64,000 nucleotides of DNA from sequence record MW233709. The stretch is one strand, 5' to 3'. This stretch comes from Escherichia phage UPEC01. Positions within the stretch are counted from its first letter, which is position 1; every line of letters starts with the position of its first letter. Below the pieces are notes generated by a model, which had not been told where the DNA came from, did no database searches, and saw only the letters and a program-made list of their open reading frames with translations. Below are positions 62,786 through 64,000 of this stretch, one piece after another. The translations under genes and the position numbers were made by a program.

Positions 62786-63240
62786 TGACATTAAATGAAG
62801 TCTCTGAAGGACTTTATGTTGCAGCCAAATTTTCAGAATTAACTCTTGATGCGCTGGAAAATCTTCAGCGCTCTCTTAAGGTACCTAATCCCGTTCCTCG
62901 TGAAAAATTCCATTCCACTATTTGTTATTCCAGAGTAAATATTCCTTATGTTGTTGCTTCAGGTAGTTTCGAAGTAGCCAACTCGGGTCACCTGGAAGTA
63001 TGGAAAACTGACGACGGGAGTACCCTGGTTCTTGTACTGGATTCAGATTATCTTAGTTGCAGACATATGTATGCACGAGCCATTGGCGCAACACATGATT
63101 TCCCGGACTACACTCCTCACATAACATTATCTTATAATGTTGGTCCTTTGACGTATAAAGGAGAAGTCCAGATTCCGGTTGTTTTGGACCGTGAATATAA
63201 AGAACCGCTAAAATTAAATTGGTCGGCGGATTTAAAGTAG
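62785..63240 (+). CDS. 57B: gp57B-like protein
   Basis: 151 aa; position after 57A. Confidence 0.7.
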
Positions 63241-63279
63241 TGTACAAATGAGTGTAGGTGCAGTATTATGTTCCTACAC
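63240..63279 (+). promoter_or_regulatory. early promoter with -10 inside a hairpin loop, upstream of IP-like genes
   Basis: GTGTAC 63240-63245, 18-nt spacer, TATTAT 63264-63269; stem GTGTAGG 63252-63258 / CCTACAC 63273-63279; AAGTAGTGTACAAA also at 567-580. Confidence 0.5.
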
Positions 63280-63300
63280 CAATGAACGAACGGAGTTAAA

Positions 63301-63633
63301 ATGAACATCAAAACTTACAACGAGTTTTTAGCCGAATCCGCCATCAATGAGACCAAATCAATTGATGATAGTGAAGGCTCTCTGAAATTTGGTTTATCCA
63401 AAAATGCAGATGGTGTTTTCTTTCAGATTGGTAATGAACGTTTTCAAACGTCCAAATATTCCAAAGCTGCAGTTGAAGCTGTCCTGAAATCTGGTGGCAA
63501 GTGGAAAGGCAAAGAAGGTACTAAAGAAATTGGTATCGCTGTTGACGGCGGTATGGCTTATTTTAAAATTGGCGATGAACAATTTATTATGTCTGCTCGC
63601 GGACGTAAAGAACTGGCAAAACTTTATAAATAA
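63301..63633 (+). CDS. internal-protein-like head-packaged protein with capsid targeting sequence
   Basis: 110 aa; N-terminus MNIKTYNEFLAE matches T4 internal-protein CTS consensus MKTYQEFIAE (recalled) with predicted gp21 cut after LAE; at the ipI position. Confidence 0.6.
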   Translation: MNIKTYNEFLAESAINETKSIDDSEGSLKFGLSKNADGVFFQIGNERFQTSKYSKAAVEAVLKSGGKWKGKEGTKEIGIAVDGGMAYFKIGDEQFIMSARGRKELAKLYK

Positions 63634-63641
63634 GGTTTCTT

Positions 63642-63914
63642 ATGAAAACTTTCAATGAATTTTTCAACGAGTCACAACTGAATGAAGAAGTAAAAATTAG
63701 TAAAGCAGTCAAATCTATGATTGACAATATCAATCACCTGTATAGCATTGACTTGACTGACCATATAACAATTGGTAACAAACGCAACTTTTTCGCGTTT
63801 GACATTTCAGAACTTGACCAGAACCAAATTAATAACATTGAGCGTTTTGCCAATGACAAGGGTCTCCGTCATGAGACAGCTGGTTATAAAAAATATGCAA
63901 TTTATCTAAAATAG
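63642..63914 (+). CDS. internal-protein-like head-packaged protein with capsid targeting sequence
   Basis: 90 aa; N-terminus MKTFNEFFNE; tandem paralog-type arrangement. Confidence 0.6.
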   Translation: MKTFNEFFNESQLNEEVKISKAVKSMIDNINHLYSIDLTDHITIGNKRNFFAFDISELDQNQINNIERFANDKGLRHETAGYKKYAIYLK

Positions 63915-63922
63915 GATTTCAA

Positions 63923-64000
63923 ATGCAAACTTTTCATGAATTTTTGGTAGAAAACAATTACCTGGCAGAAGCAAAAACCTGGCCTCTGGGTCTTCAGAAG
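63923..64000 (+). CDS. internal-protein-like protein, N-terminal fragment (3' end outside window)
   Basis: ATG 63923; N-terminus MQTFHEFLVEN; runs off window end. Confidence 0.5.
   Translation, partial: MQTFHEFLVENNYLAEAKTWPLGLQK

Follow-up and report, generated by a model that had tools for sequence, protein, structure and literature searches.

The last 700 bases of the window, by which we mean the whole 64-kb stretch of DNA that was analysed, hold three tandem open reading frames on the + strand with a spacing of 8 nt at each gap (Table 1). Each ORF of the array is preceded by a purine-rich ribosome-binding site, and the third is cut by the end of the window after 26 codons. The preliminary description had listed three consecutive leader-bearing ORFs after 57B, the last of them leaving the window, and these ORFs and their N-termini were reproduced exactly. 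The array directly follows 57B, which marks the conserved boundary of the ipI locus on its left and is itself preceded by 57A (tail fibre chaperone) and, before that, gene 1 (dNMP kinase). As a separate observation, 57B/Acb1 belongs to a known anti-defence gene family and thus directly neighbours the array of putatively injected proteins. A Pfam search returned no family for ORF1, ORF2, ORF3, ORF4 or Ip6.

Table 1 Features of the window discussed in the text, in order of position
Feature	Position	Strand	Description
Gene 22, scaffolding core protein	32522-33337	-	tblastn, 97% over 272 aa
Gene 21, prohead protease	33373-34008	-	tblastn with VR7 gp21, 99.5% over 212 aa
gp68	34011-34436		gp67 and gp68 adjoin gene 22
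gp67	34439-34693		see gp68
57B, Acb1 anti-CBASS phosphodiesterase family	62785-63240	+	Pfam PF23474, E 1.2e-59; position as 57B of T4 and VR7
T4-type early-promoter/stem-loop cassette, putative PeSL analogue	63240-63279	+	between 57B and ORF1
-35 element of the cassette	63240-63246	+	GTGTACA
Stem of the cassette, 7 bp	63252-63258 and 63273-63279	+	the two arms pair
-10 element of the cassette	63264-63269	+	TATTAT, within the loop
Shine-Dalgarno sequence	63292-63295	+	GGAG, 5 nt 5' of the ORF1 ATG, read from the sequence
ORF1	63301-63633	+	110 aa, starts MNIKTYNEFLAE-S
ORF1 leader	63301-63336	+	MNIKTYNEFLAE, predicted gp21 cleavage after E12
T4 late-promoter octamer	63625-63632	+	TATAAATA, perfect match
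ORF2	63642-63914	+	90 aa, starts MKTFNEFFNE-S
ORF2 leader	63642-63671	+	MKTFNEFFNE, position 8 is Phe
ORF3	63923-64000 (window end)	+	first 26 codons, starts MQTFHEFLVE-N

About 33 phage records, among them VR7, VR20, VR25, VR26 and SP18, match this region of the window from end to end with 97-98% identity, and VR7 is classified as a Gaprivervirus within the Tevenvirinae. The gene order is 1-57A-57B-ipI-trna.4 in T4 and 1-57A-57B-ORF156c-ip9-ORF154c-ORF153c-ip6-trna.4 in VR7. Synteny with both orders identifies the window ORFs as genes one to three of the array at the ipI locus, in line with the earlier assignment of the location to the T4 ipI locus. The right end of the array in relatives is trna.4, and the genes that follow ORF3 there begin MKTYQEFINE-S and MKTYQEFINE-T. 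Five leader-bearing ORFs lie at the locus in VR7 and four in phage 212; T4 has a single gene. Judged by gene order and identity, ORF1-3 are the start of the ipI-locus array of a Gaprivervirus, that is, of a VR7/SP18-like T-even phage. Such an array is already known in kind: the hypervariable locus was described as early as 1994, and GenBank already contains these genes. Elsewhere in the genome, a MobB-like homing endonuclease gene sits between VR7 genes 2 and 3; gene 2 of the window ends at 61190 and gene 3 seems to start about 85 nt further on, which leaves no space for it. The VR7 annotation also lists a tandem pair of gp24 vertex-protein paralogues as well as two Hoc-like genes (homologous to about 27900-30500 of the window), and one of the gp24 copies (gp24_1) was found in the window at 29217-30494 with 96.7% identity.

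When a loose leader pattern was run against the six reading frames of the 64-kb window, the three ORF starts were its only matches. One could argue from the shortness of the motif, the sole point in favour, that it resembles the T4 leader by chance, or that the ORFs are not genes. However, the three matches in 64 kb all stand at starts of tandem ORFs, none of 200 shuffled sequences gave a match, and full-length homologues with 50-86% identity exist in other phage genera and the ORFs carry ribosome-binding sites. The shuffles, homologues and ribosome-binding sites refute this reading, and we consider its probability negligible.

The leaders were placed in a wider context by a survey of 28 loci around 57B homologues, taken from viral contigs, to which T4, VR7 and phage 212 were added. 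Between 57B and trna.4, 26 loci carry leader-bearing ORFs, 53 in total and one to five per locus, with the longest arrays (four to five genes) in Gapriverviruses. The 29 distinct leaders yield the consensus M-K-T-[YF]-x-E-F-[IL]-x-E-[SA]. When the bodies were grouped by BLASTP after removal of the first 12 residues, they fell into 11 families, and ORF1, ORF2 and ORF3 of the window each belong to a different one. The earlier statements that the locus is hypervariable among T-even phages and that the three bodies are dissimilar are both borne out by these numbers.

In IPIII, targeting depends on leader positions 4 and 7, and processing on positions 8 and 10 (PMC9026906). The window leaders retain positions 4, 7 and 10, the residues at 4 and 7 being Y/F in ORF1, where the motif begins at residue 3, and F/F in both ORF2 and ORF3. 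The gp21 motif [L/I]-x-E occupies leader positions 8-10 as L-A-E in ORF1 and L-V-E in ORF3. In all three ORFs another [L/I]-x-E site follows 5-6 residues further on, so the real cut could lie there, as with the 19-residue propeptide of IPI. The proposed match to the T4 capsid targeting sequence is thereby sustained, since the leaders fit the consensus of the surveyed ORFs, and a lack of conservation of the N-terminal motif, named beforehand as a possible refutation, was not seen. One detail had been attributed too broadly: MKTYQEFIAE is indeed the leader of T4 IPII and IPIII, which start MKTYQEFIAE-A, whereas T4 IPI starts MKTFKEFTSTTTPVSTITE-A.

ORF1 belongs to the VR7 ORF156c family (phrog_3966), which is 'hypothetical' in the records. 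The family occurs in 55 phage records, from phages of Escherichia, Citrobacter, Serratia, Edwardsiella, Yersinia, Pectobacterium and Salmonella, and the leader MKT[YF]xxF[LI]xE is present in every homologue, including three detectable by profile search alone. In the window lineage the leader carries a specific 2-residue N-terminal extension, and the alignment places an Ile at the ancestral Met1 of the other members. VR7 ORF156c is annotated from an earlier in-frame ATG (MFLHQRTNGVK-MNIK...); in the window this upstream extension is blocked by a stop (63268-63285), a codon that reads CGA in VR7 being TGA here, which supports the MNIK start behind GGAG as the real start across the lineage. The second site, I-N-E, ends at residue 17, and a cut after E17 would give the predicted N-terminus TKSIDDSEGSLK. 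The ORF1 homologue of the Citrobacter phages Merlin and CF1 and of Salmonella phage STP4-a adjoins the endolysin gene. Because T4 ipII and ipIII are likewise located beside gene e, this suggests that the family can occupy the second IP locus as well.

Mature ORF1 is predicted to be a single basic chain of 98 residues (pI 9.3). Its structural model, of moderate confidence (pLDDT 75), consists of two beta-beta-beta-beta-alpha repeats in one domain, a predicted Whirly/PUR-like fold. The identity of ORF1 to the Whirly/PUR-repeat proteins it resembles in the model (MRP1/2, Pur-alpha, plant Whirly) is 5-15%, and no profile link to any cellular family was found. Among 1.8 billion representatives, a profile search retrieved no convincing cellular relatives, its matches being further leader-bearing proteins of phages and, weakly, two repetitive proteins. 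In BFVD, the only matches were the ORF1 homologue and, weakly, one protein of a Bacillus phage. For ORF2, the model (pLDDT 78) is a small generic alpha/beta domain, and a fold search with it gave no informative match. Profile and structure prediction of the mature domains, which had been proposed as a check, produced a Whirly/PUR-like model for one of the two proteins and a generic one for the other.

By homology, ORF2 is the internal head protein Ip9. It matches phrog_7673 ('internal head protein') over residues 1-90 with an E value of 2.5e-56, its counterpart in VR7 is annotated ip9, and it is 79-86% identical over the full length to Ip9 proteins, including those of RB15, RB32 and RB33 (UniProt Q38376; 79% to RB15 Ip9). 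The leaders of the two lineages differ: the window lineage has MKTFNEFFNE, with Phe at processing position 8, and the RB15 type has MKTYQEFI[AST]E. Positions 8-10 of ORF2 consequently read F-N-E as opposed to I-x-E in other Ip9 proteins, and a canonical L-N-E (LNE-E) ends at residue 15. A literature search for Ip9 found nothing. A further observation concerns Ip7 of phage OLB35 (77 aa), which shares its last 32 or so residues almost exactly with Ip9; its N-terminal half differs and, as annotated, is without a leader. The shared C-terminal part suggests either mosaic exchange within internal-protein bodies or a mis-called start.

ORF3 belongs to the family of VR7 ORF154c and RB69 ORF125c, with 99 aa in relatives. 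This family is found in 192 records, several of which are annotated as internal head protein, and, as in the ORF1 family, the leader is common to all members. The leader of ORF3 deviates by a Gln at position 2 and by an Asn at P1', where other leaders have Ser, Ala or Thr, and its second site (LAE-A) ends at residue 16.

The predicted array proteins are small, about 9-11 kDa each, and their first 10-12 residues constitute the leader. The window encodes gp21, gp22, gp67 and gp68 with 96-99.5% identity to VR7, and gp23, gp24 and Alt are also encoded. As read from its genes, the phage therefore possesses the machinery of the leader pathway, namely gp21 and the gp22/67/68 core. By analogy with T4, from which we infer packaging, cleavage site and injection, the products of ORF1-3 very probably enter the phage head and are injected together with the DNA. 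As in T4, the leader would bind the gp22 scaffolding core during prohead formation. The gp21 protease would then cut after the Glu of [L/I]-x-E and free the mature protein inside the head, from which it would leave with the DNA at the next infection. The protein would act before any phage gene expression, most likely by blocking a host nuclease directed against modified phage DNA. A literature search returned no paper on virion mass spectrometry or injection of the ORF1-3 proteins. Taken as a whole, targeted, processed and injected proteins of T4 type, encoded by an ipI array, are the best explanation, and we assign it a probability of roughly 0.8. Counted against it are the non-terminal leader of ORF1, the Phe8 of ORF2 and the Asn at P1' of ORF3.

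The array is led by a putative T4-type early-promoter/stem-loop cassette. Its -35 and -10 elements are separated by a 17-nt spacer (TGTACA-17-TATTAT in a promoter scan), the -10 element lies inside the stem's loop, and the predicted RNA fold has -15.6 kcal/mol (z -2.5). Aligned counterparts stand before ORF153c, ip6 and trna.4 in VR7 and before ipI and trna.4 in T4. There is no such element between ORF1, ORF2 and ORF3, which behave as one tightly packed unit behind a single cassette element. The further genes of relatives are single-gene cassettes, each behind its own copy of the element. VR7 ORF153c is flanked by two 95-nt direct repeats of 95% identity that run from the promoter through the stem-loop and the ribosome-binding site to the tenth codon. 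Close relatives are polymorphic for these cassettes: VR25 lacks exactly the ORF153c cassette, phage 212 lacks ip6, and in VR26 ORF154c is replaced. Recombination between the cassette elements and the shared leader codons would shuffle the cassettes, both inside each of the two IP loci and from one to the other. The repeated elements, and the presence or absence of single genes in near-identical phages, give substance to the earlier reading of the locus as a cassette array. The polymorphism study of Repoila in 1994 that named Ip9 reportedly found the same arrangement at IP loci.

The promoter/stem-loop elements of IP loci are regarded as analogues, not homologues, of PeSLs, and more than 30 IP variants have been counted (Arbiol 2010, PMC2839356). 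By its composition the window element would class as a PeSL-like cassette. It shares with PeSLs (Arbiol 2010; Comeau 2014) a promoter and stem-loop upstream of small non-essential genes and repeats that flank variable cassettes. It differs from them in that it is built on the T4 early-promoter consensus GT[GT]TAC...TA[TC][AT]AT and has an AT-rich stem, and in that the repeat reaches into the leader codons.

An early-type promoter before the array also fits a different reading, in which the ORF proteins are ordinary accessory proteins, early and cytoplasmic, that do not enter the head and whose leader codons persist as recombination homology. The extension of the VR7 repeats over promoter, ribosome-binding site and first 10 codons would be expected under this reading, and the position of the ORF1 leader away from the very N-terminus is compatible with it. 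However, the leader codons of ORF1-3 are only 69-78% identical to one another and to those of ORF153c and ip6, yet residues 4, 6, 7 and 10 are kept, and this combination of divergent DNA with conserved residues points to selection on the peptide. Moreover, T4 ipI has the same early-type cassette and encodes IPI*, a proven virion protein (PMC3012670), and the ORF1 relatives in other genera that are found by profile only retain the peptide. We therefore hold unpackaged cytoplasmic proteins to be very unlikely.

The timing of expression bears on the favoured reading of packaged internal proteins. The late-promoter octamer TATAAATA, which is conserved in VR7, coincides with the final codons of ORF1, stop included. 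As a candidate late promoter of ORF2 it was rejected, since it ends 10 nt before the ATG and a transcript from it would be without the ribosome-binding site; it probably stands too near ORF2 to serve it. The octamer may be a by-product of the Tyr-Lys-stop codons, and the + strand of the window contains six such octamers, approximately the chance number by a base-composition estimate. No well-placed late promoter was found before the array in the window, where the sole good upstream promoter is of the early type, so that synthesis of the array proteins at the time of head assembly is an assumption. A time-resolved omics paper on T4 does not mention the ip genes.

What the injected proteins might do is best judged from T4. 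IPI* inhibits the type IV enzyme GmrS/GmrD (PMC3012670), as the preliminary description had noted of IPI. In 2025, Ip2 and Ip3 were each found to inhibit a different GmrSD variant without cross-protection, which makes Ip1-3 specific inhibitors, and the authors' proposal is that every gene at the two Ip loci is directed against variants of the GmrSD family (PMC12373910). The same study obtained no reproducible inhibition when Ip4-10, including Ip9, were screened against 15 GmrSD groups (PMC12373910). An anti-defence role of the window proteins is inferred by well-founded analogy with Ip1-3. The T4 internal proteins and the window ORFs have in common an N-terminal leader ending in [L/I]-x-E, the 57B-trna.4 interval in the case of ipI, small, mostly basic and mutually unrelated bodies, and the same upstream promoter/stem-loop cassette. 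By contrast, the bodies of the window ORFs have no detectable sequence similarity to T4 Ip1-3, and the single gene of T4 at this locus compares with four or five in the Gaprivervirus lineage.

Alternatively, the proteins could be packaged and serve mainly a physical function, as basic DNA-binding proteins for charge neutralisation, DNA organisation or head assembly, as proposed for IPIII. Mature ORF1, ORF3 and ORF4 are basic (pI 9.1-9.6), like T4 IPI-III, and the T4 internal proteins bind DNA when salt is low, while head assembly is slower if IPIII is lost (PMC9026906). The lack of a GmrSD target for Ip9 in the 2025 screen points in the same direction, and a physical role fits ORF1 best. On the other hand, the ORF1 model reaches a pLDDT of 75 and its fold match comes without a sequence signal (5-15% identity), mature ORF2 is not basic (pI 6.8), and all three T4 internal proteins, including IPIII, have specific GmrSD targets. 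Eleven unrelated body families, and genes that are present or absent between 97%-identical phages, would likewise remain unexplained. A mainly physical function is consequently unlikely, although it deserves more weight than the readings rejected above.

If the array proteins are injected anti-defence proteins, as we prefer, their targets may differ from those in T4. The VR7 annotation (VR7 1-50000) contains no gene 42 (dCMP hydroxymethylase), alpha-gt or beta-gt, and dCTPase (gene 56) is present. Gaprivervirus genomes are without known modification enzymes but have dCTPase, DenA, DenB and Alc, and from the retention of these functions an unidentified cytosine modification is likely (PMC8056088, PMC12115623). 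A paper of 2026 on glycosylated 5-hydroxycytosine leaves Gaprivervirus out. Whereas T4 has the hmC-glucose pathway, Gaprivervirus does not, so that the glc-hmC-specific GmrSD may not be the relevant enemy. It is tempting, if doubtful, to propose that the four to five array proteins are aimed at defences other than glc-hmC GmrSD, and that ORF1 might bind the incoming nucleic acid and not a host enzyme. If this were true, the targets would bring to light both new specificities of defence and an internal protein that acts in a new way.

A comparable strategy is known from the Dar proteins of phage P1 and other packaged anti-restriction proteins (PMC12810830), which are likewise loaded into the head, delivered with the DNA and active against restriction before phage expression. 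The Dar proteins are unrelated to those discussed here and are loaded via other head proteins, not by a short cleavable leader.

In summary, the interpretation given in the preliminary description holds but is established knowledge (Repoila 1994; Arbiol 2010; Silas 2025). Against host nucleases, the phage's first defence is its injected internal proteins, each of which, in T4, disarms one variant of a highly diverse restriction family. The array shows clearly how promoter/stem-loop cassettes shuffle such genes. As a compact and uncharacterised set in a genus that probably carries a non-canonical cytosine, it is a sensible starting point in the search for new combinations of defence system and inhibitor.
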